Part shown: one piece after another, positions 9,741 through 36,263 of the stretch
Position numbering within the stretch: position 1 is the stretch's first letter
Layout of the letters: the number at the start of each line of letters is the position of its first letter
Assembly (NCBI GenBank): GCA_036725605.1
Contig: DAIMDW010000026.1
Coordinates: forward strand, 832-64,831
Length of the DNA: 64,000 bases
Source of the DNA: a bacterium
Lineage (GTDB): Bacteria > Lernaellota > Lernaellaia > Lernaellales > Lernaellaceae
Direction of reading: 5' to 3'
Notes under the pieces: generated by a model
The model's database searches: none
Seen by the model: the letters and a program-made list of their open reading frames with translations, nothing else
What the model was told of the DNA's origin: nothing
Position numbers and translations under genes: made by a program

Positions 9741-10400
9741 TCAGCGCAACGATTGGCCTGTCCACCATAGTTTTAGCGGAGAAGGAAGGGATCCCTTTCC
9801 GACACCCACGAAATTTTTCCCGACTTCCAAATCGGGACACCCGGAGCCGACAAGCCCCGCAGGGGCGACTGGTATGCCGCCCTCATCCCCGACCCTTCTC
9901 CCACGGGGAGAAGGGAGACCGGGTTGCCTATTTTTAAAAATGCGGGGACACGAAGGAATCGAGTCCCCGATTTTTTCTACCCTCGCCCTCTGGGAGAGGG
10001 TCGGGCGCAGCCCGGGGTGAGGGATTGCCTTCCCGACTTTCGAATTGGAACACCCTGAGCCCCGGAGGGGCGACTGGTCAGTAGCGAAGGGCGGCAGCCC
10101 TGGAAACTGCGACCTACCCAGAACCAACAAGCCCCGGAGGGGCGCAGGAATCTTTGACAATTCGCATCAGATCGGCCACGGCGACTTGCGTATGCGTTGA
10201 AAACGATCGGCTGTTCCGCCGGAGGCGAACATCGCTTGCACCCCTGCGGGGTTTGCTTGAATTTGCCTCGTCTGATTCCAGGGCTAAAAGCCCTTCGCTA
10301 TTGACCTGCGCCCTGCGGGGTGGAAGATCCTGCGCGGAAGTTCATTTCAACGTCACCCGTTTTTTCTTCTCGGAACACCCTAAATCAAAATCGCCTTAGA
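9741..10400. repeat. Dense intergenic repeat cluster with several families, including a nested inverted-repeat element.
   Basis: Contains the hairpin gcggggacacgaaggaatcgagtccccg, a family-B copy and the unit gacttccaaatcgggacaccc...ccccgcaggggcg. The inverted pair 10079–10103 (cagtagcgaagggcggcagccctgg) and 10271–10296 (ccagggctaaaagcccttcgctattg) flanks an about-170-bp core. Listed ORFs here such as 9741..10160 are spurious. Confidence 0.75.
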
Positions 10401-10502
10401 CACTTACGTTAATGGTGTTGATGTCAAAAGCGCGACGATTGGAAGGATGCCTTTTCATCTGTTGGGGCAGAGATCATCATTTTCGATTGTTTTTTTAACA
10501 TA

Positions 10503-10551
10503 GAAAAACCCGCCACATTTGAGCTTGCTCCCGAAGGCGCAGAGGCTTGGC
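10503..10551 (-). terminator. Rho-independent terminator for the AT-rich gene, on the minus strand.
   Basis: Minus-strand reading is cccgccaag...tggcggg followed by tttttc, immediately 3' of the CDS end at 10592. Confidence 0.5.
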
Positions 10552-10591
10552 GGGTATGCTGGGTAAACGTTATAGAATTTTGATAATTCTG

Positions 10592-11317
10592 TCAATTATT
10601 ATCTCCATTATTCTGAATTAATTTTTTTAAATGGTAGTATAAAGGAGTTAACTGCCCTTCAGAGTCTAGCGGACCCATATATTTCCCAGCAAATATTTCA
10701 TAGCACCCTGTTCTTACGATACGAAAAAATAAGCTATCAATTTCATTTTCTGGTATATCAAGTTTAATCTTCAAATCATTTTTAAATTCACCCCAAATAA
10801 CATGTGATCGTTGAGCGTCATTTAGTAATTTATAATCTGTCAATCCATTATTTGGCTCTCTCGGATATTTTATTTTATAAACAGTTTCCGCCCTTGCTTG
10901 CCATTCATCAAGAAGAAAAAGTATGGTCAATTCACGATAGGATAAATCGTCAAGTATCGAAAGATAATCTTCAAACTCATTGACATCATTGATTAGATTT
11001 TCTACGACACTTGAAGAAAGAAGACGTGCAAAAAATCTGATTTTTTCACGTCTACGAGTATGAAGAACCGCTTGTATCGTTTTCATAAAACAGTGAAGAA
11101 AATCCTCTGACTCAATCAATTCTGGAGTTAAGTCAACGTTATTATTTATTAACTCGTCTAAAAACGCTTCAATCCGCTCTCTTGCTATTGTGTCTAATCG
11201 TGATGTTAACCATGCATCGATTGATGATGTGATTGGGAAAAAGGCCATAATTGCTTTTACCCAAGGGTTATCAGTGGGATATTTTTGAAGAAGTTTATCA
11301 AGAGCATCAATCATCAT
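10592..11317 (-). CDS. Hypothetical cytoplasmic protein encoded by an AT-rich island.
   Basis: 241-aa ORF in a roughly 1-kb stretch whose base composition is far more AT-rich than the flanks. No recognisable catalytic motif. It has its own terminator. Confidence 0.6.
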   Translation of the reverse strand: MMIDALDKLLQKYPTDNPWVKAIMAFFPITSSIDAWLTSRLDTIARERIEAFLDELINNNVDLTPELIESEDFLHCFMKTIQAVLHTRRREKIRFFARLLSSSVVENLINDVNEFEDYLSILDDLSYRELTILFLLDEWQARAETVYKIKYPREPNNGLTDYKLLNDAQRSHVIWGEFKNDLKIKLDIPENEIDSLFFRIVRTGCYEIFAGKYMGPLDSEGQLTPLYYHLKKLIQNNGDNN

Positions 11318-11420
11318 TTTTACCCTCCATAGCCCAGCTGACTATCTATGAATTATATTATTCTGGGTAGCATTTACTTTTATATAAAATTCCAGAAAGT
11401 TCTTAAAAAATCCAGCCCCC

Positions 11421-12560
11421 CTACGCCACGGTTTTCCTGAACCGGGCGGAGGCCAGCGCGAAGACGAGGGCGCCGACGGCGAACAGCAGGTAGAACTGCG
11501 GCGCGAGGGTGTAAAAGTCCATGCCCTTGAGGATCACGCCGCGCACGATCACCAGGTAGTAGCGCAGCGGGTTGAGGTAGGTCAGGTACTGCACCGCCAC
11601 GGGCATGTTGGCGATGGGAAACATCAGCCCCGACAGCAGCACGGCGGGCATGATGATCAAAAACGACACGAAAATCGCCTGCTGCTGCGTCTGCGAAATC
11701 GTCGAGATGAACAACCCCATGCCCAGCGTGGTGAACAAAAAGACCGCCGTGGCGAAGTACAGCAAGCCCACCGAGCCGCGCAGCGGCAGTTCGAAATGCC
11801 CGACGGCGACCACGAGGATGAACGTCACGTCGATCAGCCCCAGGATGGCGAAGGGCAGCATCTTGCCCGCCAGCAACTGCCACGGCTTGATCGGCGTGAC
11901 CACCAGTTGCTCCATCGTGCCCACCTCGCGCTCGCGCGTGACGGCCATCGAGGTCAGCATCATCGTGATCACCATCAAAATCATCGCCAGCACGCCGGGC
12001 ACGAAAAAGTTCACCGACTTGAGTTCGGGGTTGTAACGGAAGCGCGTTTCGGCCTCGACGACCGGCAGCGGCCGCGCCGCCCCGCCGAGTTTCGCGCTGA
12101 CCATCCGCATGCGTGCGGCGATTTGGTCCTGCGCGTACGAGAAGAAAATCTTGCTCAGATACCCCGCGCCGATCTGCGCCGAGTTGGATTCCGCGCCGTC
12201 GACCAGCACCTGCATCGTCGCCTGCCGTCCGCGCGCCATGTCGGTGGCGAAGCCGGCGGGAACCACCAACACGATGTCGGCCAGGCCGTGCACCAGCGCG
12301 CCCTGGATGTCCGCGTCGCTTTCGGCCGCGCCCGCGTCGATGAAATACCCCGAGTTGAAAATCGCCCGCTGCAACTCGCGACTTTCGGCGCTGCGGTCCA
12401 GATCCATCACCGCGAGATTGATATTGTTGACGTCGGTGGTCAGCGCGTAGCCGAACAGGAACAACTGCAAAATCGGCGCGATGAAGATGATCGCGAACAT
12501 GCGCGGGTCGCGGAACACCTGAATGAATTCCTTGCGCGTGATGTAAGCGATGCGTCCCAT
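11421..12560 (-). CDS. ABC-2 family transporter permease.
   Basis: MGRIAYITRKEFIQVFRDPRMFAIIFIAPILQLFLFGYAL... is the typical YhhJ/YbhR-type ABC-2 permease start. It has about 6 TM helices and is the last gene of the efflux operon. Confidence 0.85.
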   Translation of the reverse strand: MGRIAYITRKEFIQVFRDPRMFAIIFIAPILQLFLFGYALTTDVNNINLAVMDLDRSAESRELQRAIFNSGYFIDAGAAESDADIQGALVHGLADIVLVVPAGFATDMARGRQATMQVLVDGAESNSAQIGAGYLSKIFFSYAQDQIAARMRMVSAKLGGAARPLPVVEAETRFRYNPELKSVNFFVPGVLAMILMVITMMLTSMAVTREREVGTMEQLVVTPIKPWQLLAGKMLPFAILGLIDVTFILVVAVGHFELPLRGSVGLLYFATAVFLFTTLGMGLFISTISQTQQQAIFVSFLIIMPAVLLSGLMFPIANMPVAVQYLTYLNPLRYYLVIVRGVILKGMDFYTLAPQFYLLFAVGALVFALASARFRKTVA

Positions 12561-12569
12561 GAGAGGCTC

Positions 12570-13700
12570 CTACAGCTTCTTGCGAAAACGCGCGTTGGCC
12601 AGCGCCATGACCGCCACGGCGAACACGATCAAAAACGCCGTCGGCCGAATCAAATCCGTCGCCGGCTGCGCCTTGAGCATGATCCCCCGCGTGATGACGA
12701 TGAAGTACCGCGCCGGCACCGCGTAGGTGATCGCCTGCACCCACGCGGGCATCGACTTGATCGGGAACATGAATCCCGACAGCAACATGCTCGGCAGCAT
12801 CGTGGTCAGCACGACGATCTGGTTGGCCAGCAGTTGGTTGCCCGCGACCACGCTGGCCAGCAGGCCGATCGACAAACCGGCCGCGGCGAAGATCAACGCG
12901 GTGATCGCGAACAGCAGCACACTGCCGGCGAAGGGCACGCCGAACACGGCCACGCCCGTCACCGCGATCAGCACGCAGTCCAGCAGTGAGATCACCAGGT
13001 ACGGAATCATCTTGCCGATCAGAATTTCGTGGCGGCGCACCGGCGTGGCGATCAGCCCTTCCAGGCTGCCCATCTCGCGTTCGCGCACCACCGTCAGGCT
13101 GGTCAGCAGCGCGGCGATGACCATCATGATCACCGCGATCAGCCCGGGCACGATCGTCTTGGTGCTGTCCAGATCCTGGTTGAACCAGATGCGCATGCGC
13201 ACGTCAACCGGCGGAATGCCGTCGGTGGGCAGCCCGGCCGCGCCCAGCGCGTCGCTCACGCGATCCATGTTGAACGACGCCAGAATCGCGTCGACGTAAC
13301 CCGAGGCGATCGTCGCCGAATTCGATTCGCTGCCGTCGAACATCACCTGAATCTTGTCGCCCGCGTAGCGCTCCATGTTCTTGGCGAAGCCCTCCGGAAT
13401 CGCCAGGGCGATCTGCGCCTGCTCGCGGTCCAGCAGCTCGGGCAACTGCTGCGGATGATCGACCGTGCGCACGATTTTGAAATAGCCGCTGGAGGTGAAG
13501 CGGTCGATCAACGCGCGGCTGTAACTCGTTTGATCCTCGTCGGCCACGGCCAGCTTGAGGTCGCGAATGTCGAAGGTGATCGCGTAGCCGAACAACAGCA
13601 ACAAAATGATCGGCAGCACGAAAGCCAGCGCCAGCGTGCGCCAGTCACGCAGGATGTGCAGCGTTTCCTTGCGGGCGATGGCGGGAATGCGGCTGTTCAT
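12570..13700 (-). CDS. ABC-2 family transporter permease.
   Basis: MNSRIPAIARKETLHILRDWRTLALAFVLPIILLLLFGYAITFD... is a paralogue of the downstream permease. Its ATG overlaps the upstream ATPase stop (ATGA). Confidence 0.85.
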   Translation of the reverse strand: MNSRIPAIARKETLHILRDWRTLALAFVLPIILLLLFGYAITFDIRDLKLAVADEDQTSYSRALIDRFTSSGYFKIVRTVDHPQQLPELLDREQAQIALAIPEGFAKNMERYAGDKIQVMFDGSESNSATIASGYVDAILASFNMDRVSDALGAAGLPTDGIPPVDVRMRIWFNQDLDSTKTIVPGLIAVIMMVIAALLTSLTVVREREMGSLEGLIATPVRRHEILIGKMIPYLVISLLDCVLIAVTGVAVFGVPFAGSVLLFAITALIFAAAGLSIGLLASVVAGNQLLANQIVVLTTMLPSMLLSGFMFPIKSMPAWVQAITYAVPARYFIVITRGIMLKAQPATDLIRPTAFLIVFAVAVMALANARFRKKL

Positions 13701-14656
13701 CGCGCGCGCCCTCCCTCGGCGGCGATGCGCCGGTCTTCGCGTTCGATCAAGTGAATGAACGCGTCTTCCAAGCTGGCGCGGATCGTCCGTACGCGCGCGT
13801 CATGCCACCCGGCCTCGCGCACCAGCGCCCGCACACGCTCGGTCGCGTCGGCGCCGTTGTCGATCAGCACGTGGCTGACCAGGCCGAAAATCTGCGCCTG
13901 CTTGATCAGCGGCGCTTTTTCCACGCGGGCGACGACCTCGGCCGGCGGCGGGCCGCTGATTTCCAGCATCGTGCCGGCGATGATGTCGGTGACCAGTTCG
14001 CGCGGCGACGCCTCGGCGATCTTGCGCCCGCTGTAAATGAGAATCAGCCGGTCGCAGTGCTCGGCCTCGTCCATGTAGTGCGTGGTGACGAACACCGTCA
14101 CGCCCTGTCGCCGCAGCTCGGCGATCAGATCCCAGAAATCGCGGCGGCTGGCCGGATCGACGCCGGCGGTCGGCTCGTCCAGAAAGATCAACCGCGGTTC
14201 GTGCATGATCGCCGCGCCCAAGGCCAGGCGCTGTTTGACGCCGCCCGACAGATCGCCGGTCAGGCGATGCTCCGCGCCGGTCAGCCCGGCCATCTTCACC
14301 GCGAAGGCGATGCGCGCGGCCTTTTTCGCGCGCGGAATGCGGTAGATGCCCGCGTAAAATTCCAGGTTCTGGCGCACGGTCAGATCGGCGTAGAGCGAAA
14401 AACGCTGGCTCATGTAGCCGATGTTTTCCTTGATCTTGTCCACCTCGCGGCGCAGGTCGAAGCCGATCACCTCGGCCTCGCCCTCGGTCGGCGCGAGCAG
14501 GCCGCACAGCATGCGGATGGTCGTGGTCTTGCCCGCACCGTTGGGGCCCAGGAAGCCGAAGACCGACCCGGCCGGCACCTCGAACGACACGTTATCCACC
14601 GCGGTGAATTCGCCGAAGCGCCGCACCAGATTGCGCGCGGTAACCGCCGTGGTCAT
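13697..14656 (-). CDS. ABC transporter ATP-binding protein.
   Basis: Walker A GPNGAGKTTT, signature LSGGVKQRLALG and Walker B LIFLDEPTAGVD. The start MTTAVTARNL at 14656 overlaps the upstream ATPase stop. Confidence 0.9.
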   Translation of the reverse strand: MTTAVTARNLVRRFGEFTAVDNVSFEVPAGSVFGFLGPNGAGKTTTIRMLCGLLAPTEGEAEVIGFDLRREVDKIKENIGYMSQRFSLYADLTVRQNLEFYAGIYRIPRAKKAARIAFAVKMAGLTGAEHRLTGDLSGGVKQRLALGAAIMHEPRLIFLDEPTAGVDPASRRDFWDLIAELRRQGVTVFVTTHYMDEAEHCDRLILIYSGRKIAEASPRELVTDIIAGTMLEISGPPPAEVVARVEKAPLIKQAQIFGLVSHVLIDNGADATERVRALVREAGWHDARVRTIRASLEDAFIHLIEREDRRIAAEGGRAR

Positions 14657-15570
14657 GACGACCCCTCCACCCGTGACAGGAACACGTCCTCGAAATTCGG
14701 CCGCCCCGGCTCGATGCTGCGAAACGCCACGCCCGCTTCGCTCAACGTTTGGCCGATCGTCTCGGGCGCGGTGCCCGGGCGGCAGGCAACCTTGAGCGCA
14801 TCGCCGGCCGGGTAGCTGCGTAGCGCGCACTGCTGTTGCGCCAGCGCCGCGCGCGCGCCGTCGTAATCGTCGGTGAGCACCTCGAACAGCGCCTCGTCGA
14901 AACCGGCGAGAATCGCCTGCGGCCGGTCGGTCAGCAGAAAACGCCCGTTGTGAATCAAGCCGACGCGATGGCAGCGCTCGGCCTCGTCCATGTACGGCGT
15001 GCTGACCACGACCGCCACGCCCTCGGCGGCGAAGGCGTACAGGATCTCCCACAGCTCACGACGCGACAGCGGGTCCACGCCGGTGGTCGGCTCGTCCAGC
15101 AGCAACAATTTGGGCGTGTGAATCATGCAGCACGAAAGCGCCAGTTTCTTGTACATGCCGCCCGAGAGCTTGCCCGCCGGGCGTTTGGCGTAGGGCTCCA
15201 GCCGCGAAAAGGCGAACAGCCGCGCCAGCCTTTCCCGGCGGTCGGCGCGCGAAACGAAATGCATATCGGCGAAGAAACGCAGGTTCTCCTCGACGGTCAG
15301 GTCGCCGTAGAGGCTGTATTGTTGCGGCATGTAGCCCAGCAGTTCGCGCGCCTGGTCCGGCCGCTTGTGCACGTCCAGCCCGGCGATGCTCGCCTCGCCC
15401 TCGTCGGCGTCCAGCAGGCCGACCAGCAACCGCAGCGTCGTCGTTTTGCCCGCGCCGTCCGGCCCGATCAGGCCGAAGATCTCGCCCGGCTCGACCTGCA
15501 AATCGATGCCGGCCACGGCCTCGATGTCGCCGAAGCGTTTGTACAGGTTGGCGGCGGACAGCAGACTCAT
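14653..15570 (-). CDS. ABC transporter ATP-binding protein.
   Basis: Walker A GPDGAGKTTT, signature LSGGMYKKLALS and Walker B LLLLDEPTTGVD. The start is MSLLSAANLYKRFGD. Confidence 0.9.
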   Translation of the reverse strand: MSLLSAANLYKRFGDIEAVAGIDLQVEPGEIFGLIGPDGAGKTTTLRLLVGLLDADEGEASIAGLDVHKRPDQARELLGYMPQQYSLYGDLTVEENLRFFADMHFVSRADRRERLARLFAFSRLEPYAKRPAGKLSGGMYKKLALSCCMIHTPKLLLLDEPTTGVDPLSRRELWEILYAFAAEGVAVVVSTPYMDEAERCHRVGLIHNGRFLLTDRPQAILAGFDEALFEVLTDDYDGARAALAQQQCALRSYPAGDALKVACRPGTAPETIGQTLSEAGVAFRSIEPGRPNFEDVFLSRVEGSS

Positions 15571-18431: not shown

Positions 18432-18446
18432 TTCCTTCTACCCTTT

Positions 18447-18476
18447 GTAAACGGTTTTCGCTTCATTCGTTTACAT
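18447..18476. promoter_or_regulatory. Candidate TetR operator, an inverted repeat.
   Basis: tgtaaacg-N14-cgtttaca is a perfect 8-bp inverted repeat lying 16 bp upstream of the tetR start codon. Confidence 0.35.
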
Positions 18477-18599
18477 TGTACACTTCGTTTCCGTCGTGTC
18501 AAGTATTTTTTTCGTTTTTCAAATCGGCATCCCTAAAACACCGGCCTCGCCGGGTTTTGCTCCTTGGTTCGCAGGAAAAAATGTCGGGAAAAGTCTCGG

Positions 18600-18990
18600 C
18601 TGGTCCTAAAAAATCGGGGACATGATTTCATCGTGTCCCCGTATTTTCTGGCCCGCCTGCGCTCAAGCTGCGGTGGGACAGGCCCGCCTGCGCGGGCATG
18701 ACGGCAATTCTGTCATCTCGACCGGAGCAAAGCGGAGTGGCAATGTCCGCCAAAGCTTTTTGCGACGGCGGACCTGTCCGCCATAGCCTTGGCGACGGCG
18801 GACCTGTCCGCCATAGCCTTGGCGACGGCGGAAGAGATCCCTTTGTCTGGTCATCCCGCGCCCCAAGAGACTGTCGATAAATGCGTCGACAGGCGACAAA
18901 CAGCCCCGTCAGGGGCGACAGAGGGTAGCCCGGTGCGTGAGCGCCGGGCAAAAACGCCCTAATTTCCCCCAAATCCCGCAGGAGCAACAG
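18600..18990. repeat. Intergenic repeat cluster: second copy of the about-150-bp element, with an internal 30-bp tandem duplication.
   Basis: Hairpin cggggacatgatttcatcgtgtccccg, the block tgtcatctcgaccggagc...ggcggaagagatccctttg matching 1455–1600, and gtccgccatagccttggcgacggcggacct repeated twice at about 18771–18838. Confidence 0.7.
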
Positions 18991-19104
18991 ACGCTTTCAT
19001 TTTCCAAACGAGAAAATCGACAGTCTCCCCCGACGCGGGATCTGGCCGCAATAAGCACCCGCTTCCGCGCGGCCCTAGCCGCTGGCCGAGGCTTCACACA
19101 ATGA

Positions 19105-19185
19105 ATGAAACATAGGTCCAGGAATTATTCCTGCCAGGGATTCTCTCCAGCGACCATGTTCCCACGGAACAAGACCGCAGCTTTT
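19105..19185. repeat. Family-A palindromic repeat copy.
   Basis: ataggtccaggaattattcctgccagggattctc...catgttcccacggaacaagaccg is the reverse-complement match of 1230–1290. Confidence 0.65.
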
Positions 19186-19230
19186 ATCCCGCATTAGCGA
19201 AATTCCGTATTCCGCATTCGCCGTTTCGCA

Positions 19231-20466: not shown

Positions 20467-20699
20467 TTTGGTTTCCTACTTTTCATTGAAAATGAGGAAC
20501 AGTCTATTTCACAAACCAACAGAAAAAGTACGGCCAAGGCGCCGGTAACCGAAATGCGGATCATTTCATCCTCCAATGCGGGCGAAGCGGCGCGAGGCTT
20601 CAGCTTCGCGCGATTATTCTACGGGAATAAAATTGAAATGTACATGCTGAAAAACACTGACAAGCCGCACTGCGTTCGGCGTGCCAGCGCCACCCGGCA

Positions 20700-20945
20700 G
20701 GTTATTTGTAGGGGCAACTCCCCGTGGTTGCCCCGGCCTGGGTTGCCCTGGCCTGGGTAGGCACGGGGACCTACCCCTACGATGGTTGCCCTGCCGCTGG
20801 GTAGGCACGGGGACCTACCCCTACAATGGTTGCCCTGGCCAGGATTGCCCTGGCCTGGGTAGGCACGGGGACCTGCCCCTACAATGGTTGCCCCGGCCTG
20901 GATTGCCCTAGCCTGGGTAGGCACGGGGACCTACCCCTACGGCTG
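20700..20945. repeat. Tandem minisatellite, about 4.5 copies of a 44–58-bp unit.
   Basis: The unit gtaggcacggggacctacccctacaatggttgccc(t/c)ggcc(a/t)ggattgccct(g/a)gcctgg repeats head-to-tail with a 15-bp indel between copies. Confidence 0.8.
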
Positions 20946-20975
20946 GCAATGCACTCGAACGCCGGCACTATTGGC

Positions 20976-21160
20976 GTGGGACACTTTTCGCGAAGCGTCC
21001 CACCGTCGATTTTTGCAACATATTGATATCATTGATAAAACATAAAAAATAAGCGTGGGACAAAGTGTCCCATTTGTCCCACTTGGGGCTCCAAAACGTA
21101 CCTGAAAATGCGGGGACACGAAGGAATCACGTCCCCGATTTTCGGAGAAACCGGGACACG
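20976..21160. repeat. Hairpin repeats with a GGGACA core.
   Basis: gtgggacacttttcgcgaagcgtcccac, gtgggacaaagtgtcccatttgtcccac, and gcggggacacgaaggaatcacgtccccg, the last being the same family as 9945 and 26155. Confidence 0.6.
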
Positions 21161-21163
21161 CGT

Positions 21164-24100
21164 TTATTGTTTGCTTACGCCGGGCGCCATCGGCCCGGTC
21201 GCGCCGTCGAGGGTGCGACGGACCATCTTGGCCAGGTCGCCGGGCGAATAGGGCTTGCTGATGAACCGCACGCCTTCGTCGATTACCCCGTGGTGCACGA
21301 TGATGTTTTCCGTGTACCCCGAGGTGAACAGCACCTTGGCTTCCGGATGAATCGTGCTCAGGCGTTCGGCCAATTGCCGGCCGTTCATCACCGGCATGAC
21401 CACGTCGGTGAGCAACAGATGTATCGGTTCATTGTATTGCTCGGCGAGCAACAACGCGTCGCCGCCGCTGTCGGCGTGCAAAACCTTGTAGCCGAGGCGC
21501 TTGAGCACCTTGATCGCCAGGTTGCGCACGATCTCCTCATCCTCGACCAGCAGGATCGTCTCCTTGCCGCCCGGCATTTCGTTCGTCCGGCCGAACAACG
21601 CCGGTTTTTCGGCTTTCTCCTCGACGCGCGGCAGGTAGACCTTGAAGGTCGTGCCCTTGCCCTCTTCCGAATACACCTCGACGTTGCCGCCGGCCTGCTT
21701 GACCGCGCCGTAGATCGTCGCCAGGCCCAAACCGGTGCCCTTGCCCTTTTCCTTGGTGGTGAAGAACGGCTCGAACAGATGGGCTTTGACCTCTTCGCTC
21801 ATACCCGCGCCCGTGTCGCTGACCGCCAGCATCACGTATGCGCCCGGCGATGAATAAGAACGCAGACGGCAATACTCCTCATTCAACTCCACGTTGGCCG
21901 TTTCGACGATCAGTTTGCCGCCGTTGGGCATCGCGTCGCGCGCGTTGACCGCCAGGTTGACCAGAATCTGCTCGAACTGCCCCTGGTCGATTTTGACCAC
22001 GCCCAGGTCCTCGCCCGCCAGGGTCTGCAGCTGGATGTCCTCGCCGATCAGCCGCACCAGCATTTTGTGCATCGCTTCGATGAGTTCGTTCAGATCCAGC
22101 ACCTTGGGCTCGATGATCTGCTTGCGCGAAAAAGCCAGCAACTGGCGGGTCAACGCGGTCGCGCTATCGGCCGCTTTGCGGATTTCCTCCAGCGTTTCGG
22201 TCAGCGGGTCGCTCTTTTTCAGGTCCAGCAACGCCAGTTGCAGATTGCCGCTGATGCCCGTCAGCAGGTTGTTGAAGTCGTGCGCCACGCCGCCGGCCAA
22301 ACGCCCCACCGCTTCCATCTTCATCGCCTGCTGGAGTTGCTCCTGCAGTTTGCGCTGCTCCTGTTCGGCATGAACGCGATCGGTCATGTCGCGGATGTTC
22401 AGCACGATGCCCCGCACGGCCGGATCGTGCAGCAGGTTGCTGCCGACCGCCTCCAGGTGCACCCAATGCCCGTTTTTATGTCGATAACGATATTCGGCTT
22501 TGCGCAACACGCCCGGATGCTGCAATCCCTCGTTGAAGACCTCCATCACGTGGGGCAGATCGTCCGGATGGATGCCGTCAAAGGCCTGTAAATTTATCAG
22601 CTCTTCGACCTGATAGCCGAGGATGCGCGACACTTGGTCACTGAGATAGGACGGGGACCCGTTCTCGTCCACGATCTCGACGATGTCGTTGGAGTTTTGC
22701 ACCAGCAACTGGTAGCGCTTTTCTTTTTCGCGCAGCACCGCTTCGACCTGCTTGCGGTCGGATATGTTGCGGTCGAAGGCGATGGCGAAAAACTGATCGT
22801 CGAAGCTGAAATAGTTGGTGTTCACTTCGACGGGAAAGACGGTGCCGTCCTTTTTTACATGGCGCGACTCGAAGCTCAAGAAACCCTTTTCGCGCATCTG
22901 CCGTTTGTGTTCGTCCCACTGATCTTCATTGAAATCGGGATCGATATCGAAGACCTTCAATCTCAGCAATTCTTCACGCGTGTATCCCAGCGATCCGCAG
23001 GCCGAATCGTTCGCGTAGACGATATTGCCTTCGCTGTCGATCCACATAATGCTGTCTTTGGCGTGGTCCATGGCGAACTGCGTGCGCCGCATGGCTTCTT
23101 CCGCCCGCTGCCGTTCGGTAACGTCGCGGATCAATCCCAAGGTGCCGACGATCCGGTCGCCCTTGGTCACGATCGAGGCGGTCACTTCGCCCGGGAAAAA
23201 GGCGCCGTCCTTGCGTTTCATCGTGTACAGCGCGTTAAACACCCGCTCGCCGGAGCCGATGATTTGCGCGAACAACCGCATGGCGGACGGGACTTGATCG
23301 GCCGGTAGATAGTCGGTGAAGACCGTACCGACCATCTCGGACGGTTCATAACCAAAAACGGTTTTCGATGCGGGTGAGATGTAATCGATCGATCCTTCAT
23401 CGTTGGTGATGAACAGGACATCGAGCAGGCTTTCGGCCATGCCGCGAAATTTCTCTTCGCTCTCGCGCAGCTTTTCCTCGCCCAACAAACGCTTGGTTAC
23501 GTCGAGAAACTTTACCGTGACGCGCCCCGGCGACGCCTGGAAGGCATAGACGTCATACGCACCGTGAATTTTTTCGTACTTATAATTCACCTGCGAATTG
23601 ACCCAATAACCGCCGTTGCGGGCGATCTCCTTGTAGCGGTCGGGAACCTCGGTTTGCACCAACGGGGGAAACGCTTCCTCGATCGTCTTGCCGATGAACT
23701 GACCGTGATCGACGCCCAGAATCCGGTTTGCGGCCGGATTGGCGCCGGAGAAAATCAATCGGCCGTCCTCTTCCAACCGATACATGTGAATGCCCATCGG
23801 CGAGGATTCGATGATGCTGCGGTATTTTCGCTCGGACAATTCCAACTCGTGATGGATGGCCTTGGACTGGCTGATGTCGCGCGCGAAGGAAATCACCGCC
23901 TGCACCCGGCCCGCGGCGTCGAATTCCGGCGTCAGCAACCGGTCGATCCATCGGCCGTCGGGCAACAATATTTCCCGGCGATGATTTTGCCCCTCCCGGA
24001 AAACCTGCCGGATCGCCTGTTCCAATTCTTCGCTGATATCGGCATCCAGACCGGCTTCGGCGAACGTCTTGCCGATGAATTGACCGGGCGGAACGCCGGT

Positions 24101-25435: not shown

Positions 25436-25811
25436 GCCTCCCCCATACATGGCGAAAATGGGAAGGATACTGTATTTTCAATCAAACGTCGCTTATTTCA
25501 CGAATCTCAATTTCGTGGACCAAAAATCGCTTCTGAGGCCTATTCGTATCGATTGCGTTCTCCAACCGAAAAAATCCTCACATTTATTAGTATAATCAAC
25601 CGCATCCGCCGATACAAGCAGCGAACCATTTAACGCATAAGGATATTTCGCCCGCTTTTTAGATATTATTTAATTTGTAAATATTATTTATTTGTAACGC
25701 AGAACTCCGTCGCCCAACCAATTGTAATGACAACTTCTTCCAGTTGAAAATGGAAGTTTTCAAATAAAACGAAAAGGCGCTTTTCTGACGCCATGTTTTT
25801 ATCCCAAGGCA

Positions 25812-25945
25812 TTTCGGAGGCACGTTCCTGCAACGTGTCCCCGCAAATTCGGGTGGCGAGGGGCTATGGTGGGGTTGCTGCGAATTTCGGGGGCATGTTC
25901 TCGCAATGTGTCCCCGCAAATTCGGGGGTTGCCCTGAATTGGCGG
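25812..25945. repeat. Direct repeat of about 60 bp, two copies.
   Basis: gcacgttcctgcaacgtgtccccgcaaattcggg and gcatgttctcgcaatgtgtccccgcaaattcggggg. Each contains the small hairpin cccgcaaattcggg. Confidence 0.6.
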
Positions 25946-26149
25946 GGTGCCCGTCTCAAGCCAGGGCCGCCAACGCTTTCCCCCGCCAGCTATCATATTC
26001 GGTTATTTTCTGAAATAATAGTATATTATTGCCTCATATAAATACCGCAACCGATGACTGTCGCTCAACAATCGGCACGGCTCGCAAATTCGCCAATGAA
26101 ATGCCGTCGAAATAACATCCTGACCGTACCGTAACGCGAACAAAGGGAA

Positions 26150-26466
26150 AAATGCCGGGGCGCGAAGGAATCAACTCCCCGCTTTCTCCGCAAAAATCAC
26201 GAGACACGCAGCAAGTGCATGTCCCGGAGTTTTCGCGAACCGTATCGATCGAGTACATGCCCTCATGTGGCCCGGCCGCCGGCCGAGGGCACACATAATA
26301 AAGGCAAAACATCGGTCCTGGGATTATCCCCGGCACCTTTGGCGGATAGCCAAAGGTGTGGCACACGGAAGAATCCTCGCGCGCGCGGCTCAGCCGCCGG
26401 CCGAAGCTCCACAAAATGAGGGCAAATCATAGGTCCAGGGATTATCCCTGGCAGGAATTATTCCTG
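26150..26466. repeat. Repeat cluster: one hairpin-family copy and three family-A palindromes.
   Basis: gccggggcgcgaaggaatcaactccccgc, then catcggtcctgggattatccccgg, and cataggtccagggattatccctggcaggaattattcctgg. Confidence 0.7.
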
Positions 26467-26467
26467 G

Positions 26468-30381: not shown

Positions 30382-30786
30382 TCAGGAGGCCGGGAACGGC
30401 GAAAACTGATCGGCGACCACCTGCCAGCGATCGTCCTCGCGCACGAGGAACATCATGTCGCGCCCGGCCATGGTCAACGTCTGGGAGCCCAGGCGGCACG
30501 ACAACGTATAATTGTAGGTGACCACCGCCGTCTGCCCGCCGGCGTAGAGCTGGATTTTCTCGTCGCGCTCCTCCCAGCTATGCACGGTCACGCTGTCGGC
30601 GAAGCTCTGCCAGCCCTCGACGCACGCGTCGCGCCCCTCGCGCCGGAAGCGGTCGGTGGGGGTGATCGCCACCATGTCGCGGTGGAAGTAGTCGCGCAGC
30701 TTCAGCGGATCGCCCTCGGTGGTCCAGGCGCGGTTGAGCGTCTGCACCGTGCGCCAGACCTCGGCGCGCAGGATGTCATCGTTCAT
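30382..30786 (-). CDS. SnoaL-like / DUF4440 NTF2-fold protein.
   Basis: 134-aa ORF with the typical NTF2-like pattern (W..V..L..AW...D...L...F..D). Confidence 0.6.
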   Translation of the reverse strand: MNDDILRAEVWRTVQTLNRAWTTEGDPLKLRDYFHRDMVAITPTDRFRREGRDACVEGWQSFADSVTVHSWEERDEKIQLYAGGQTAVVTYNYTLSCRLGSQTLTMAGRDMMFLVREDDRWQVVADQFSPFPAS

Positions 30787-30804
30787 CGGTTCGCCTTTCC
30801 GCGA

Positions 30805-31389
30805 TTACTCGCCCTTGTGTTTTTTGCCCACCTGCCATGCGGGCGCGATGTACTCGCCCAGGCGCCAGTACGACGGTTTGGGGAAGGTGAACAGCATCGG
30901 GTTGATTTTCAGCCAGTCGACCTTGTCGTCGGCCAGCACATCCTCTTCGGCGTACACCGCGACGATCTCGCCGAAGTAGGCCGTGTCGCCGGCCATCGCC
31001 ACCGAGTTGATCAGCTTGCACTCGGCGGTGAGCGGACAATCACGGATCATCGGCGCGGCGGTTTCCCGGCCGGTGAAGGTCGGAAACGTGCAGCTTTTAT
31101 CGACCTTCGCGCCCGAGACGAGGCCGCAGTGGTCGGTAACCTCGACCATCGACGGCGTCGGAATGTTGATGCTGAATTCGCCGGTTTGCTCGATGATCCG
31201 ACTGGTGCGGTGCTCGGGATTGAGACCGCACACGATCGTCGGCGGTTTGAAGTTGACGATGCCCACGAACGCGGCCGGCATGTAATTCGCCTTGCCCTCG
31301 ATCGCCGCGCCAACCAGCACCAGCGGCATCGGCACGATGAACGGACCGGGCTCGATTTGTTTTTTGGCCATGATGGAAAAACCCCTCAT
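30805..31389 (-). CDS. Flavin-reductase-like FMN-binding domain protein.
   Basis: PMPLVLVGAAIEGKANYMPAAFVGIV matches the flavin reductase-like split-barrel. Size 194 aa. Confidence 0.7.
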   Translation of the reverse strand: MRGFSIMAKKQIEPGPFIVPMPLVLVGAAIEGKANYMPAAFVGIVNFKPPTIVCGLNPEHRTSRIIEQTGEFSINIPTPSMVEVTDHCGLVSGAKVDKSCTFPTFTGRETAAPMIRDCPLTAECKLINSVAMAGDTAYFGEIVAVYAEEDVLADDKVDWLKINPMLFTFPKPSYWRLGEYIAPAWQVGKKHKGE

Positions 31390-31454
31390 TCAATTCGGTG
31401 TGCGGCCAATGTAGACCGGCAAGGAAGGGCGGTCAATCGGCGGGCCCGTCGTTT

Positions 31455-32141
31455 TCACTTAAAGAAGTAGCCGGCCACGCCGCCGACGGCGAACCACAAA
31501 ACGATCTGCCCGACGATCAGCGCGATGCCGCGGCCGTCGTCCGGAAAGACCTCGCGGATCGTCATCCGGCCGGTGCGGATCGCGGAGATCGCGCGCCAGT
31601 AGTTGCTCAGCGCGACGACGAACGCGGCGGCGATCATCGTGACCGACAGCCAATCCGGACGCGTCGCGACCAGGTTGACCTCCCACCAGGCCCGTGCGAA
31701 ATCCCACATCCCCAGGCCCAGCAGGCCGCCGACCAGCAGCGGGGTGATGCCCAGGTCTTCCCAGGCCGTGGCGCCCTCGCGGTTGCGCGTGAACAGCAGT
31801 TGCGCGACGAAGACGAGCACCAGCGCGACGGCCTCCAGCAGCATCTCTTCGAGGAAGAAGTTCCAGAGCGTCCCCTGTCCGGCGAACTGCCGCGCGCCGA
31901 CGATCACGGGCGGCACGACGAACAACCAGCGCGCCTTCGCCCGCGCCGGCTCGGTCCGCGCCGCGAACAGGCCGAGGAAGAGAATCTGATACACCAGCAG
32001 CACCACCCACCCCAGCAGCATCGCCAGCCCGCCGCGCCCGCCGACCGCAAACACCGCCACGTACCCCAGGTACGGCAGCACGGCGTAGTAGCCCGCCTGG
32101 ATGGTGCGAATCAGCGAAAATGGATGGGAAGTCTCTTCCAT
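31455..32141 (-). CDS. Integral membrane protein with about 6 TM helices, function unknown.
   Basis: Strongly hydrophobic 228-aa ORF with GC-rich codon usage matching the host background. Confidence 0.55.
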   Translation of the reverse strand: MEETSHPFSLIRTIQAGYYAVLPYLGYVAVFAVGGRGGLAMLLGWVVLLVYQILFLGLFAARTEPARAKARWLFVVPPVIVGARQFAGQGTLWNFFLEEMLLEAVALVLVFVAQLLFTRNREGATAWEDLGITPLLVGGLLGLGMWDFARAWWEVNLVATRPDWLSVTMIAAAFVVALSNYWRAISAIRTGRMTIREVFPDDGRGIALIVGQIVLWFAVGGVAGYFFK

Positions 32142-32551
32142 GGACCGGTTATAACGGGAAGCCGCAACGGAGACAATCGCGGTGGGCCGGGCGTGGCTTC
32201 AACCGCCGTAGTGCGTCACGCAGAGATCTTCGATTTTCTCGGAAAAGTTGCCGACCGAATCGGCGATCTCGATGTCGAGTTTCATTTTTCATCATTCTTA
32301 ATCCGCTTTGCGGATACTGCAAAATGGGCCGATGGTCGATCGAGAACATCGATCTGCTCTGACAAACCGAAAAGGAGTTTCCAAACACAGGTCTCTAATA
32401 ACCATTAATATTAGAAGACGAACTGTAAGACAAGGGATTGACTTTTACATATGATCCAATATTTTAGTGAAATTTATTGGGTTGATTATAAATTGATTTA
32501 TATATATCATATTCTCATATCTAGACACATTCAGATGGGAAGGAATGAAAC

Positions 32552-34066
32552 ATGTTTAAAAGGCGTTTATTTTTACGCATATTAGGCGGACTATTTATCA
32601 TAATTGGAGCTTATCTTTGGTTTACAGATGACCGATCATTTTCGTTGAATATTTTTTCTTTTACAATTGAAATCCCAATTTACTTCTTTGTAGCAACTTT
32701 AGGATTATTTCTAGTCTGGGAGCCAAGTTTGATATTTGATTTTCTGGGAAATACTTTTAATTCCGAAAAGATTCTTTCATTTGCGCAGAGGATAGGAGTA
32801 TTTGGTTTAACTGAAGAAAATCCTACACCAGTACAACTCGCAAAATCATTGAAAAGGCAGGTATCAATAGATAACTCTAAAACAGTTTTTTTTGTGCTTA
32901 TTTTGGTTTTTGGAATGTTTTCATTTGTTCCAAAGATTGTCTCAGATAAAATTTCCGATGACGATTTTAAGGACAACTCAAAACAACTAGTAACATTAAT
33001 TCAAGAATCTAGGGTCGACTTCGATTCGGCAGACATGTTCAGACGCTTCATTTTGAACAACAAAAATATATTGTCATCAGAAAAATATTCAAGTTCGGAT
33101 ACGGGAAAGTTATTTTCTTATTTAGAGCGACTTTTTTCACCAGAAATTAGCGACCAAAGAAAATTTGATGAAATTCTAGCAAGAGAAATCTATGGGGAGA
33201 TAAAGGAAAAAGTAAATGCCGACACTCAATTAATCGAATCAGGCCTTTTCGAGATCCCAAAATGTTTAAATGATCCTGTAGAGATGCGATCTACACTTCT
33301 TACTTTTTTTGCTATTGTATGTCAAAAACAAGGGGGGCATGGAAAGCACCTAGATCCATACATATATGCACGACAACTTTTAAATATTGCTTTCAAGGAA
33401 CTTCCTCAAAATGCCAAAGCGCCAGCAACTTATAATGCAATGGGAGTTAATTACGCATCCACATTTAAAAGCTATGGACAATATTTAGAAAGATTTTCTC
33501 GTAATGAGCCAATGAGAACAAAATTTTGCGATGCTATCGGCGAAAAAAAGGCGCTCACACGATTACAACTAGTAAGAAAATCACTTATGTATTTTGAACA
33601 AGCCTTTAAACAGAGCACTAACAACATGATGGAAGCGCGTTATAGAAATAACCACACAGATATGATGATCGAGATTCTTTCATCAGCGCACCTTGATAAT
33701 ATAAACTATTTTAAGGAGATAACCGATCGTGAAGATGAAATTTTTTTAGAAAAACATGTGGCACGACATGGTAACAAAGAAACTCTTTCACGTATTCTTG
33801 AAGAATTAACTACTGAAGTGAATATTGCATTGAAGCTATCGAAAGAACCAGAGATATTTTATACAAGAGCCCAATTATATTCTGTTGGATACAAGATAAA
33901 TGTATCACAATCCTTAAAAATTCAACCTTGGGCCAATGAAACATGGGTGCTAAATAAAATTCATGATGATTTGCAGATCGCAAAATCACTTGGATTGCAA
34001 GAAGAACTTTTTAATATTGACGCATTGAAACGCCTACATGTGGTATCGGATCGACCACTTTTATAA
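32552..34066 (+). CDS. AT-rich-island gene 1: membrane-anchored protein with 2–3 N-terminal TM helices and an about 380-aa helical cytoplasmic domain of unknown function.
   Basis: Hydrophobic segments LFLRILGGLFIIIGAYLWF, IPIYFFVATLGLFLVW and TVFFVLILVFGMFSFV. The rest is charged and helical with no known motif. AT-rich codon usage. Confidence 0.65.
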   Translation: MFKRRLFLRILGGLFIIIGAYLWFTDDRSFSLNIFSFTIEIPIYFFVATLGLFLVWEPSLIFDFLGNTFNSEKILSFAQRIGVFGLTEENPTPVQLAKSLKRQVSIDNSKTVFFVLILVFGMFSFVPKIVSDKISDDDFKDNSKQLVTLIQESRVDFDSADMFRRFILNNKNILSSEKYSSSDTGKLFSYLERLFSPEISDQRKFDEILAREIYGEIKEKVNADTQLIESGLFEIPKCLNDPVEMRSTLLTFFAIVCQKQGGHGKHLDPYIYARQLLNIAFKELPQNAKAPATYNAMGVNYASTFKSYGQYLERFSRNEPMRTKFCDAIGEKKALTRLQLVRKSLMYFEQAFKQSTNNMMEARYRNNHTDMMIEILSSAHLDNINYFKEITDREDEIFLEKHVARHGNKETLSRILEELTTEVNIALKLSKEPEIFYTRAQLYSVGYKINVSQSLKIQPWANETWVLNKIHDDLQIAKSLGLQEELFNIDALKRLHVVSDRPLL

Positions 34067-34075
34067 GGAGATACT

Positions 34076-34909
34076 ATGAATAAAAATCAGGTTTTTAACG
34101 ATACTGTTGAACAAATCCAGCATGATGCCACCAGGCAAATGTTGGCATTAATTCATGGGATATTTATTGTAGCTGACGGGAAAAAAGTGAATAATCCGAA
34201 TGTATTAACAGAGCAGATAAATGAAGATTCGATACATCGTAATTTTGAGAAAATAAAAAATAAATTCATCCACAATTATGAAGTCTTTCCCATATTTGAT
34301 TTTATTTTCAATGGTATTGAAAGATTAAATTTATTATTTATGAACGCTCAAGGATTTTTTCGCCACAAAGAAGAGTATGTTCTTGAAATAAAGAAAATAA
34401 GTGTAACAGATTTGTTATTAGACGTGATTGATTTTTATTCTGGCATTTCGGCGGTTCAAAATATTGATATTTATACTGAGTTTTCAGATACACCTCATAT
34501 TTTAGCTGATTACGGTTTACTTTTTAGAGCATTTTGTAACATTATAGATAATGCTATAAAATATAGTTACTCCAAAGATTCAGCAGATCGTAAGAGGTAT
34601 ATTTATGTTACATGTAGACGACACTCCCAAATGGGACACATAATTATTGAAGTGTCATCATATGGTGTGAAACTTGAAGATGACGAATTGCTGAATTATA
34701 AAATGTTCCAATATGGCGTAAGAGGAGTATATGCGTCTGATCGAGATCGCCACGGGAGCGGGATTGGACTAGCTGAAGTAAAAAGAATTATTAATAGTCA
34801 TGGTGGAAATGTGGATATATTTTTTTCAAAAAAAGAAGGAGAGCCAGGCGGTGTTACTGTATTGAAAGTCGTGCTACCACCTGAAAGTGGAATTAGAAAG
34901 AAGGAATAA
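34076..34909 (+). CDS. AT-rich-island gene 2: soluble histidine-kinase-like ATPase (HisKA_3-like H-box plus HATPase_c) with no sensor domain.
   Basis: Candidate H-box QIQHDATRQMLALIHGI, N-box FCNIIDNAIKYS, G-box DRHGSGIGLAEVKRIINSHGGNV. No TM segments. It starts 10 bp after gene 1. Confidence 0.65.
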   Translation: MNKNQVFNDTVEQIQHDATRQMLALIHGIFIVADGKKVNNPNVLTEQINEDSIHRNFEKIKNKFIHNYEVFPIFDFIFNGIERLNLLFMNAQGFFRHKEEYVLEIKKISVTDLLLDVIDFYSGISAVQNIDIYTEFSDTPHILADYGLLFRAFCNIIDNAIKYSYSKDSADRKRYIYVTCRRHSQMGHIIIEVSSYGVKLEDDELLNYKMFQYGVRGVYASDRDRHGSGIGLAEVKRIINSHGGNVDIFFSKKEGEPGGVTVLKVVLPPESGIRKKE

Positions 34910-35340
34910 TGAGTGAAGACTTTATCACAAACATCAAATTCGCTGCAGATAAAAACGATTTATCACTTACTATATTATGGCTCGACGATGACACCATAGG
35001 AGATACGTTCTTTTTAGATAATGTGCAGGTAGTTACAGCAAAAAGTTGTAAAAGAGCTGATGAAAAATTACATAAAGATGTTGTTTTTTCAGGAGCAGTT
35101 ATTGATATTATTGTACCTCAAGAAGGATGGGGGGAACATTATTACAAATATGCAGGATTGGAATTCGTCAGGTATTTAAGAAAAACATTCGATGATGAAC
35201 TTAAAGTATTTGTTTTGACAAATCAAATTCCATGGGCTTTAAATAAGGCTGATATTATAAACGCAGGAGCAAAAAATGTGCTATTAAAAAAAGATTGTGG
35301 ATTGCGCAACTTATTACCATGTTTTTTCAGTAATGATTGA
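34909..35340 (+). CDS. AT-rich-island gene 3: receiver-like (REC) single-domain protein, possibly degenerate.
   Basis: ILWLDDD (acidic pocket), AVIDIIVPQ (phospho-Asp position), KVFVLTNQ (Thr) and NVLLKKD (Lys) sit in REC-like spacing. Its start overlaps gene 2's stop (ATGA). Confidence 0.5.
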   Translation: MSEDFITNIKFAADKNDLSLTILWLDDDTIGDTFFLDNVQVVTAKSCKRADEKLHKDVVFSGAVIDIIVPQEGWGEHYYKYAGLEFVRYLRKTFDDELKVFVLTNQIPWALNKADIINAGAKNVLLKKDCGLRNLLPCFFSND

Positions 35341-35359
35341 TTGAAAGGATTAAAACATA

Positions 35360-35707
35360 ATGTGTAGAATTTTCATAAGACTTATTAACAAATTTCGTCC
35401 ACGTAAGGGATATTTAAAACGAATTGAGAATTATGAAGAGAAATTTTCCCATCATGGTGAACGCGTGTCGTTAGAGGAAACTGCAAGTGTTCATGTAGCC
35501 AAGCTTGTTCTTTTTCGCAATCCAGAATTCAGGTTGGCCAGTTTACAAACATTGGCTGAACAGGGCTGTCAAGAATGCTTCGCCCCAGCGTTAAAAGATG
35601 CAATCTCAAGTGCAAAAAAATGGCCTCACGAACCTATAGAACACCATGCCTGCCATGTTTTTAATGTTTTAAGCACATACAACAAAGCACATGATAAAGA
35701 ACTTTAG
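35360..35707 (+). CDS. AT-rich-island gene 4: small helical protein of 115 aa, function unknown.
   Basis: It lies 20 bp after gene 3 and has a Cys/His-rich C-terminus (CQECF...HEPIEHHACH). Hpt-like or HEAT-like roles are both speculative. Confidence 0.4.
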   Translation: MCRIFIRLINKFRPRKGYLKRIENYEEKFSHHGERVSLEETASVHVAKLVLFRNPEFRLASLQTLAEQGCQECFAPALKDAISSAKKWPHEPIEHHACHVFNVLSTYNKAHDKEL

Positions 35708-36263
35708 AAATAATGTTTTGTAAAGTCTACGTAATTCATTTGATACGTAAAAGATAACATCTCTCCATACAGTTCACTTTTTCAGGCGATAATTATTTGA
35801 CTCTTCGCTTTTGTTTGTTTCGCCAGTTCGATGGTTTTAATCGGTTATCGGCCCTGATTACGACAATTACGGTAGGGGGAGTTAATAATTGTTGTGATTC
35901 AACTCGGCACCCAACCCCTCTTGCAGCACCTCGACCGATTGATTCATCAAATGTCTTGCGCGGCACAATGTGAATAACTCACTGAGGATTGTACAACTGA
36001 AGAATTCGACAAAACCATGGGAACACAGACAATCGATCAAAAACACCACCGATAATTAATCGGCAAGATGGCAACTAACTCACTTACCTCCTATCTCAAA
36101 TAATCATTTCCATTTCCCGCCCGCCTCCGTTACCCTTTTCACAGCGCCCGGCCTTTCACAAAACTGCGCGGAATCGTTTAAGAATTGGACAGTGCGAAAT
36201 GGAAATGTGGAATAACTCTGTGTTGTTGCGTCGGTTTTTTGCCGCGGTGCGGCGATTTTCTCA

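Follow-up and report, generated by a model that had tools for sequence, protein, structure and literature searches.

The stretch analysed here (contig DAIMDW010000026.1, positions 832 to 64,831; hereafter the window, 64 kb in all) comes from an uncultured GC-rich (about 65%) bacterium that occurs in several public metagenome assemblies and whose record is labelled 'MAG TPA: bacterium' (window proteins HPQ71025.1 to HPQ71044.1). Three AT-rich blocks lie in it: island 1, whose one gene encodes a putative remote relative of the Abi-alpha abortive-infection family and is followed by an abiF-type RNA hairpin; island 2, with a single gene for a secreted beta-propeller protein; and island 3, a cassette of four co-directional genes resembling a phosphorelay operon. 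Several families of short, partly palindromic repeats of the repetitive extragenic palindromic (REP) kind are also found in the window (Table 1). The composition of the blocks sets them apart and agrees with horizontal acquisition; they are probably independent, horizontally acquired accessory islets set in intergenic gaps, not a single repertoire taken from a single donor as a preliminary description of the window had proposed.

Table 1 Positions in the window of the three islets, their genes and the repeats beside them (aa, amino acids; nt, nucleotides; ORF, open reading frame)
Feature	Position	Strand	Description
REP-like repeat cluster	9752-10391		Left of island 1, downstream of smpB
Island 1	10395-11415		AT-rich islet of about 1 kb, from the REP-like cluster downstream of smpB to the stop codon of the ABC-2 permease gene (11421)
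abiF-type RNA hairpin (RF03085)	10508-10554	-	38 nt downstream of the stop of the 241-aa ORF, same strand, followed by a U-tract
Solitary 241-aa gene	10592-11317	-	Putative distant relative of the Abi-alpha (PF14337/DUF4393) abortive-infection family
REP-like repeats	18608-18837, 19108-19142 (region 18608-19142)		Left of island 2
Island 2 gene, 411 aa	19231-20466	-	Predicted secreted beta-propeller (SBBP/delta-60 repeat) protein with signal peptide
Four tandem copies of a 58-nt unit	20725-20951		Right of island 2; GGGTAGG...CCTACCC hairpin
One palindromic REP-like unit	21101-21142		Right of island 2
Island 3 hotspot	about 32220-36124		Between the divergent 228-aa gene (start 32141, -) and rnfA (start 36343, +)
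Cassette gene 1, 504 aa	32552-34066	+	Three predicted transmembrane segments, TPR-like alpha-solenoid
Cassette gene 2, 277 aa	34076-34909	+	Predicted soluble minimal histidine kinase: conserved His16 region, then HATPase_c
Cassette gene 3, 143 aa	34909-35340	+	Single-domain receiver (REC)-like; putative D26/D27, D66, T104, K127
Cassette gene 4, 115 aa	35360-35707	+	Conserved H45, SLQTLA motif

Composition of the blocks and distribution of repeats

A GC profile of the 64 kb in 500-nt windows (median 0.622, robust standard deviation 0.065) places islands 1 to 3 at -3.2 to -4.9 robust standard deviations from the median, island 1 (10.25-11.5 kb) having a GC content of 0.34-0.41, island 2 (19.5-20.5 kb) of 0.37-0.40 and island 3 (32.25-36.0 kb) of 0.30-0.40. 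Besides the islands, -3 standard deviations is reached only at 25.25-25.75 kb and 47.0-47.75 kb, in short non-coding or gene-edge DNA. The second of these (47000-47800, GC 0.41-0.42) lies between a RidA-like gene and a 409-aa outer-membrane-protein-like gene and holds neither an ORF nor repeats. The junctions of all three islands recur in independent JGI, ENA and Logan assemblies, mostly at 100% identity and at 99.5-99.9% in two contigs. Because independent assemblies span the same junctions the islands are real, and these identical junctions rule out an assembly chimera or a binning artefact. The existence of three AT-rich blocks, as first described, is thus confirmed both by windowed GC and by independent assemblies.

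The coding sequences point the same way, with a marked difference between island 2 and the other two. Host genes have a GC content at third codon positions (GC3) of 0.75-0.94, against 0.24 for the island 1 gene and 0.23-0.30 for the island 3 genes, while island 2 stands at 0.51 (range 0.40-0.54), its last 60 codons climbing to 0.74. Relative synonymous codon usage (RSCU) correlates between island 1 and island 3 (0.68-0.76) as well as between the halves of island 3 (0.76), whereas that of island 2 correlates with neither island 1 nor island 3 (-0.02 to -0.06) and reaches +0.2 to +0.35 with host genes. A codon usage with the same AT bias had been attributed to all three blocks; this holds for islands 1 and 3 and fails for island 2.

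Tetranucleotide signatures were compared after base composition had been removed, with size-matched host pieces as reference. Host pieces correlate with one another at 0.70-0.74 (standard deviation 0.05), island 1 with island 3 at 0.44, the two halves of island 3 at 0.36, and island 2 with islands 1 and 3 at 0.17 and 0.23, whereas island 2 correlates with the host at 0.57. These values bear directly on the earlier proposal that one low-GC donor supplied a single linked mobile repertoire, integrated at recombination hotspots formed by REP-like repeats or miniature inverted-repeat transposable elements (MITEs), a scenario that appears improbable. The AT-biased codon usage common to islands 1 and 3 speaks for it, but the composition-normalised signatures of these two islands agree far less than those of pieces from the same genome, and the third block has an unrelated codon usage and a host-like signature.

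Repeats were mapped in 14 long non-genic stretches (13 between genes, plus the opening 2.9 kb, most of which is unannotated), and REP-like repeats were found in seven of them (1-2918, 9709-10591, 18432-19230, 20467-21163, 25451-26467, 49026-49737 and 55627-56277). In this one 64-kb window they therefore occupy three of the six island-flanking regions (left of island 1 and both sides of island 2) and four of the eight others. The cluster left of island 1 has further copies at 1315-1344, 18608-18647, 21105-21142, 49153-49526 and 55772-56125. The right flank of island 1 and both flanks of island 3 have no repeat in common with the rest of the window, and a repeat that had been placed near 32.3 kb has no second copy there. 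The statement that each island sits beside repeats is accordingly correct for island 1, on its left, and for island 2, on both sides, and incorrect for island 3. REP-like repeats are a general feature of the long intergenic regions of this genome, and they would coincide with islands 1 and 2 only since both kinds of element accumulate in intergenic DNA. The abutment of islands 1 and 2 on repeat clusters, which would favour a single donor acting through repeat hotspots, is countered by the lack of enrichment at the islands and by the absence of repeats at the one proven hotspot, described below; nearness to REP-like repeats does not mark them as integration sites. They resemble known REP/MITE-like repeats in being short palindromic units spread across many intergenic regions, and nothing in the window points to a role for them in inserting the islands.

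Matches to a described RNA motif lie in intergenic DNA dense with these repeats. Acido-Lenti-1 (RF01687) is found at 18902-18948 (-) with 38.5 bits against an Rfam gathering score of 37, and a weak match (21.7 bits) at 10058-10102 (-) overlaps a repeat unit that recurs at about 49169-49216 and 56078-56125. The Acido-Lenti-1 'sRNA' motif of this lineage may be a REP-like repeat unit and not a discrete gene. The 0.9 kb next downstream of smpB (9037-9708, +) is likewise full of REP-like repeats, and no tmRNA gene (ssrA) is found by ARAGORN or Rfam in the 64-kb window.

Probable separate origins of the three islets

The locus of island 3 differs in content between close relatives. A sister-species contig (L013) matches the window at 93% nucleotide identity over 5.8 kb of flanking genes and loses homology at about 32219, beyond which it carries 516 nt of other DNA (GC 0.30) encoding a protein C-terminus with weak DUF1829/CoiA-nuclease similarity. 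On the other side, L011 and L012, two independently assembled contigs of a 99%-identical strain, depart upstream of 36125 into another AT-rich sequence. This divergent AT-rich DNA in L013 and in L011/L012 identifies the interval between the 228-aa gene and rnfA as a cargo-variable hotspot. The alignment of relatives, suggested earlier for defining the insertion boundaries, gave both junctions of island 3 (~32219 and 36125), and for island 2 a synteny break at 21182. The mobile, accessory character first ascribed to the blocks agrees with their composition in all three cases, and variable cargo is shown at island 3 only.

Core-genome defence and integration hotspots, with variable cargo between conserved flanking genes, are known from the pangenomes of P. 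aeruginosa and E. coli. The island 3 locus is like them in its conserved flanks (the 228-aa gene and rnfA), in the alternative AT-rich cargo of close relatives and in needing no integrase; it is unlike them in that three alleles have been seen, two of them as contig ends, and in that the defence role of its cargo is only putative. Exchange of cargo would probably proceed by homologous recombination in the conserved flanks, a route proposed because neither an integrase nor a tRNA gene nor direct repeats are present. At the left junction, two small ORFs, at 32199-32285 (-, 28 aa) in the window and at 406-537 (+, 43 aa) in L013, both end in VTH[YH]GG-stop, and homology between the window and L013 starts within the final few codons of both; the agreement may be accidental, or it may mark a short conserved peptide or a 5' leader of the 228-aa gene.

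AT-richness itself follows the cargo in other genomes. In 49 unrelated loci, the GC content of island 1 gene homologues is on average 9 points lower than that of the flanking DNA, with a deficit of more than 5 points in 32 of the 49 and a maximum of 24, and relatives of the cassette lie 3-17 GC points below theirs. Because homologues of both cargoes are AT-shifted in unrelated hosts, the AT-richness that islands 1 and 3 share is not a donor signature and does not point to a common donor; mobile cargo of this kind is generally AT-rich, and AT-rich accessory genes in a GC-rich genome are a known, ordinary phenomenon. Islands 1 and 3 both show conflict-type affinities and may both be conflict or defence cargo, which is a further point in favour of one linked repertoire, but the Abi-alpha-like family and the cassette family never occur together in about 90 other loci. 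Nor do the contents of the blocks form the functionally related set once suggested: their products are unrelated, no functional link was found from island 2 to islands 1 and 3, and they are connected neither by mobility or tRNA genes nor by direct repeats at their ends.

Marks of a classical genomic island or integrative element, that is, an integrase or transposase, a tRNA site and flanking direct repeats, are absent. The island ORFs contain no recombinase domains (Pfam, NCBIfam), and the window has no tRNA or tmRNA genes according to ARAGORN and Rfam, so that insertion at a tmRNA gene beside smpB was rejected. Direct and inverted repeats at the island ends, recommended earlier as a check, do not exceed chance, the longest end-to-end matches being 8-9 nt against a shuffled mean of 6.8-8.3.

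What speaks for acquisition is composition, with GC of 0.31-0.42 against a host median of 0.62 (3-5 robust standard deviations low) and GC3 of 0.23-0.51 against 0.85-0.9 in the host. It is hardly likely that the blocks are instead native genes whose low GC results from selection or from protein composition, for example in repeat-rich proteins rich in Asn, Asp, Tyr or Ile. The partly host-like tetranucleotide signature of island 2 (0.57) and its fixation in all strains seen, shared by island 1, would suit a native origin; yet a GC3 of 0.23-0.30 in a genome at 0.85-0.9 cannot stem from amino-acid composition, the island 3 locus holds other cargo in close relatives, homologues of islands 1 and 3 are scattered over unrelated taxa and plasmids, and the sister species lacks island 2 beside the PAS gene.

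Several observations weigh against the interpretation of the blocks as independently acquired islets. Islands 1 and 2 occur in every strain contig found (island 1 in every assembly holding the flanking permease gene, island 2 in all strain contigs bearing the neighbouring TetR gene), and no empty site was observed for either among the strain contigs and the one relative fragment, L013, which was the single genome fragment returned by a scan for close relatives with the purH-like gene. Their status as insertions comes from composition, joined for island 2 by the synteny break. On the same side of the balance stand the remoteness of the Abi-alpha kinship, the borderline score of the abiF hairpin and the uncertain function of the cassette, all taken up below.

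A phosphorelay-like cassette in island 3

The four cassette genes are tightly packed, with genes 2 and 3 overlapping by 1 base and the other gaps measuring 9 and 19 nt. The 504-aa product of gene 1 has no Pfam, PADLOC or NCBIfam match; its AlphaFold2 model (predicted local distance difference test score, pLDDT, of 90) finds weak Foldseek matches to TPR and IFIT proteins, and its hydrophobic segments at about 6-24, 43-61 and 112-130 are kept in orthologues. With three transmembrane segments, the solenoid of this putative sensor may face outwards. The 277-aa protein matches Pfam HATPase_c (3e-13), NCBIfam histidine-kinase models (1e-13 and weaker) and, over the ATPase region only, PADLOC PDC-M43B (7.5e-14). 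Its His16 is invariant in five orthologues and the N box (DNAxKYS) and GxGxGL (G2) box are conserved, while the G1 Asp is not evident in the alignment. The receiver-like product of gene 3 has no Pfam match of its own, but the orthologue L182_131 matches Response_reg at 3e-5 (24.6 bits, under the cut-off of 30.2), and all five receiver residues (acidic pocket, acceptor Asp, Thr/Ser and Lys) align in three orthologues. The 115-aa product of gene 4 has no family match in Pfam, PADLOC, NCBIfam or PHROGs, and orthologues of 101 and 112 aa occupy the same position in L182 and L187 (blastp 3e-8).

The cassette gene 1 family is rare. Word-indexed searches with the 504-aa and 277-aa proteins returned only the queries themselves; scanning 1.84 billion cluster representatives in full with HMMER brought up 48 relatives of the 504-aa protein, at 24-35% identity. 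All four genes are collinear in L182-184 (521, 278, 131 and 101 aa; E values against the window proteins 1.6e-65, 1e-41, 4e-18 and 3e-8), and the same order recurs in L187/188 (544, 280, 132 and 112 aa), from a lineage unrelated to that of L182-184. A kinase-like gene also follows gene 1 on two short contigs (L180 and L181). In L185 (1318-5694) a gene for a TIR-domain protein (432 aa) is followed by one for a 1005-aa ParA-like/nSTAND1 NTPase fused to the transmembrane TPR-like module of gene 1; this fusion resembles an NLR-type conflict system with a membrane-embedded sensor. Neighbours of cassette relatives include AbiEii-like and BrnA/DUF4160/DUF2442 toxin-antitoxin genes; in PADLOC scans that covered orthologues of the cassette as well as adjacent genes, only AbiEii, TIR and generic ATPase-level matches came up.

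The gene content suggests a phosphorelay, in which the membrane-anchored TPR-like protein would act as the sensor, detecting a cue, and would control a cytoplasmic histidine kinase that has no sensor of its own. The kinase would autophosphorylate on His16 and pass the phosphate to Asp66 of the receiver, and the phosphorylated receiver would in turn act on or through the fourth small protein as its downstream partner. Both the order of these steps and the output are inferred.

The nearest described system is Detocs, a defensive two-component system that comprises the TPR-kinase DtcA, the stand-alone buffer receiver DtcB and the receiver-effector DtcC, the effector being PNP in 80% of cases (bioRxiv 10.1101/2023.01.24.525353). 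As in Detocs, one small, patchily distributed operon encodes a putative sensor of the TPR type together with a histidine kinase and a free-standing receiver-like protein, in which phosphorelay logic would serve an accessory and possibly defensive module; the resemblance of the receiver to DtcB is one of architecture alone. In contrast with DtcA, every cassette seen has one gene for the TPR-like protein and another for the kinase (504 and 277 aa in the window), and the sensor is anchored in the membrane; in contrast with DtcC, the sole receiver is a single domain of 131-143 aa, with no receiver-effector fusion and no PNP or killing domain. The fourth small protein, which has no recognisable domain, is an addition relative to Detocs. 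By analogy, the cassette may work like Detocs, but it is not a member, because the fused sensor-kinase and the receiver-effector are absent.

Judged by its genomic context, the cassette, a conserved phosphorelay-like operon, more probably serves conflict or phage defence than housekeeping regulation. That it is indeed a conflict or defence system is possible, with about the same likelihood as its being an ordinary accessory regulatory system. More specifically, and tentatively, it could represent an undescribed phosphorelay-based conflict or anti-phage family running from the TPR-like sensor through kinase and receiver to a small His protein, possibly Hpt-like, with the same sensor also serving C-terminally in a TIR-associated STAND NTPase; if true, the cassette would follow Detocs-like logic while differing from Detocs in sensor, in topology and possibly in output. 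An equally tentative alternative makes the cassette an ordinary accessory two-component regulator, responding for instance to an envelope or environmental cue and playing no part in phage defence. Its intact kinase and receiver motifs and its membrane sensor-like partner would fit such a regulator, but a receiver without an output domain, in an operon without a DNA-binding regulator, would not; and the uninformative neighbours in L182 are set against relatives that adjoin toxin-antitoxin genes or, next to a TIR gene, form a fusion with a STAND NTPase, in a family that is rare, patchy, AT-shifted and housed here in a variable hotspot. The cassette has no recognisable effector domain, and its PADLOC matches amount to a generic hit on the ATPase region of the candidate system PDC-M43B; it could be an ordinary accessory signalling module. 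Furthermore, a gene 1 relative stands alone in L186, one of five independent contexts inspected in all. These points count against a defence role. Being rare yet conserved, with conflict-type relatives and a place in a strain-variable hotspot, the kinase/receiver cassette is nevertheless a concrete candidate for defence screening.

Solitary genes of islands 1 and 2

In a 100-nt profile, the GC content of island 1 lies at 0.28-0.40 over 10350-11400 and jumps to 0.62 at 11400. Its 241-aa protein has no match of its own in Pfam (E<=0.1), PADLOC, NCBIfam, PHROGs or PDB sequences, and the kinship with Abi-alpha is accordingly remote. Its 190 homologues (about 225 aa, 36-45% identity) make up a well-conserved family, in which 27 of 38 aligned members match Pfam Abi_alpha weakly (E<=1, best 7e-7) and 4 of 120 listed members have a precomputed PF14337 match. 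An AlphaFold2 model (pLDDT 84) is all-helical with a possible small C-terminal winged-helix-like unit, and finds no significant fold match in the PDB. The family seems to move as a single solitary unit: one homologue sits alone inside a moa (molybdenum-cofactor) operon of Moraxella osloensis plasmid p3, and others adjoin group II introns or tRNA gene pairs (loci in all: L097/L098 1392-3579, L099 3540-3759, L140/L141/L143 and L189 4959-5618). In viral collections it is nearly absent, with one viral-contig locus and none in phage genomes.

Abi-alpha itself (EF2833 of E. faecalis prophage 6, DUF4393) has been shown experimentally to cause abortive infection with premature lysis (PMC6356687), a phenotype demonstrated for this protein only. 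The island 1 family is like it in being a single-gene module of about 220-270 aa, solitary, mobile and AT-shifted, whose members weakly match Abi_alpha; it is unlike it in that the window protein falls below any Pfam threshold and the family is almost never found in viral contigs. A single-gene function of the abortive-infection type is the best guess for the 241-aa protein, held with low confidence.

The hairpin beyond the 241-aa gene scores 37.2 bits (E 0.002-0.004) with the abiF model of Rfam, whose gathering score is 37. It is near-perfect to the consensus (CCCGCCAAGCCUCU...GCUCAAAU.GGCGGGU), all conserved loop and stem bases agreeing, and the segment folds as a hairpin plus UUUUU, so that the transcript of the 241-aa gene would end in an abiF-type hairpin. 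Its score is only at the gathering threshold and the structure also resembles an ordinary intrinsic terminator, which counts against the assignment. The abiF motif is an RNA antitoxin located upstream of the AbiF (Abi_2) toxin gene (PMC12373285). Here the hairpin is followed by about 110 nt of AT-rich DNA with an 18-codon ORF and then by host repeats, without an Abi_2/AbiF (HEPN) toxin gene, no ORF of the islands matches Abi_2 in Pfam, and the window holds no Abi_2 gene. Compared with the type III-like toxin-antitoxin pair RCd22-AbiF of C. difficile phi027 (PMC12373285), the hairpin fits the Rfam consensus almost base for base, but it is present in one copy and not two, and it follows an unrelated gene where an abiF RNA would precede an Abi_2 toxin gene.

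The position of the hairpin, 38 nt past the stop on the same strand and within the same AT-rich islet, would be compatible with functional coupling to the 241-aa protein, in a new toxin-antitoxin pair of RNA and protein, the RNA being encoded after the protein. Such a pair is very unlikely: the motif is absent from all 81 loci encoding homologues of the protein (by pattern search, and with the Rfam model on 40 of them), and the protein itself has no Abi_2/HEPN signature. A conserved partnership of abiF RNA with this family was rejected on the same count, and because none of the 81 loci has the motif, gene and hairpin are taken to stand side by side in this genome alone. Most probably the hairpin was left behind by an adjacent AbiF module, since lost, and has become the terminator of the 241-aa gene; an antitoxin-type RNA without its toxin bears on the persistence or reuse of such RNAs.

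The 411-aa protein of island 2 matches NCBIfam Lepto_SBBP_lipo (3e-16) and delta_60_rpt (1e-10) and, weakly, Pfam SBBP. It has no relatives in plasmid or viral-contig collections. The GC content of the island is intermediate and increases toward the 3' end, and island 2 is probably of separate origin, either older or partly ameliorated. In the sister species (L013) synteny breaks off precisely where the PAS kinase gene ends (its 3' end, window 21182), and an alpha-amylase-family gene comes next instead; the region of island 2 is therefore a rearrangement point.

Further features of the window lie outside the three islets. The stretch 1800-2900, at 49-50% GC, is a fourth, milder compositional outlier that was absent from the preliminary description; it contains an ORF at 2202-2837 (-) of the SatD family (Pfam 4.7e-14), with small membrane ORFs adjoining. 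One contig, L004, departs from the window within rnfA (36531) over its positions 4539-4760 (the tail of ERZ795057 NODE_10393), which probably reflects a chimeric end of the contig and not genuine variation. The ABC-2/HlyD/OEP efflux operon between islands 1 and 2 contains, at 13697-15570 (-), a pair of ABC ATPase-like repeats separated by 917 nt, with 73-76% identity over blocks of 82-88 nt, which suggest a duplicated or fused ATPase.

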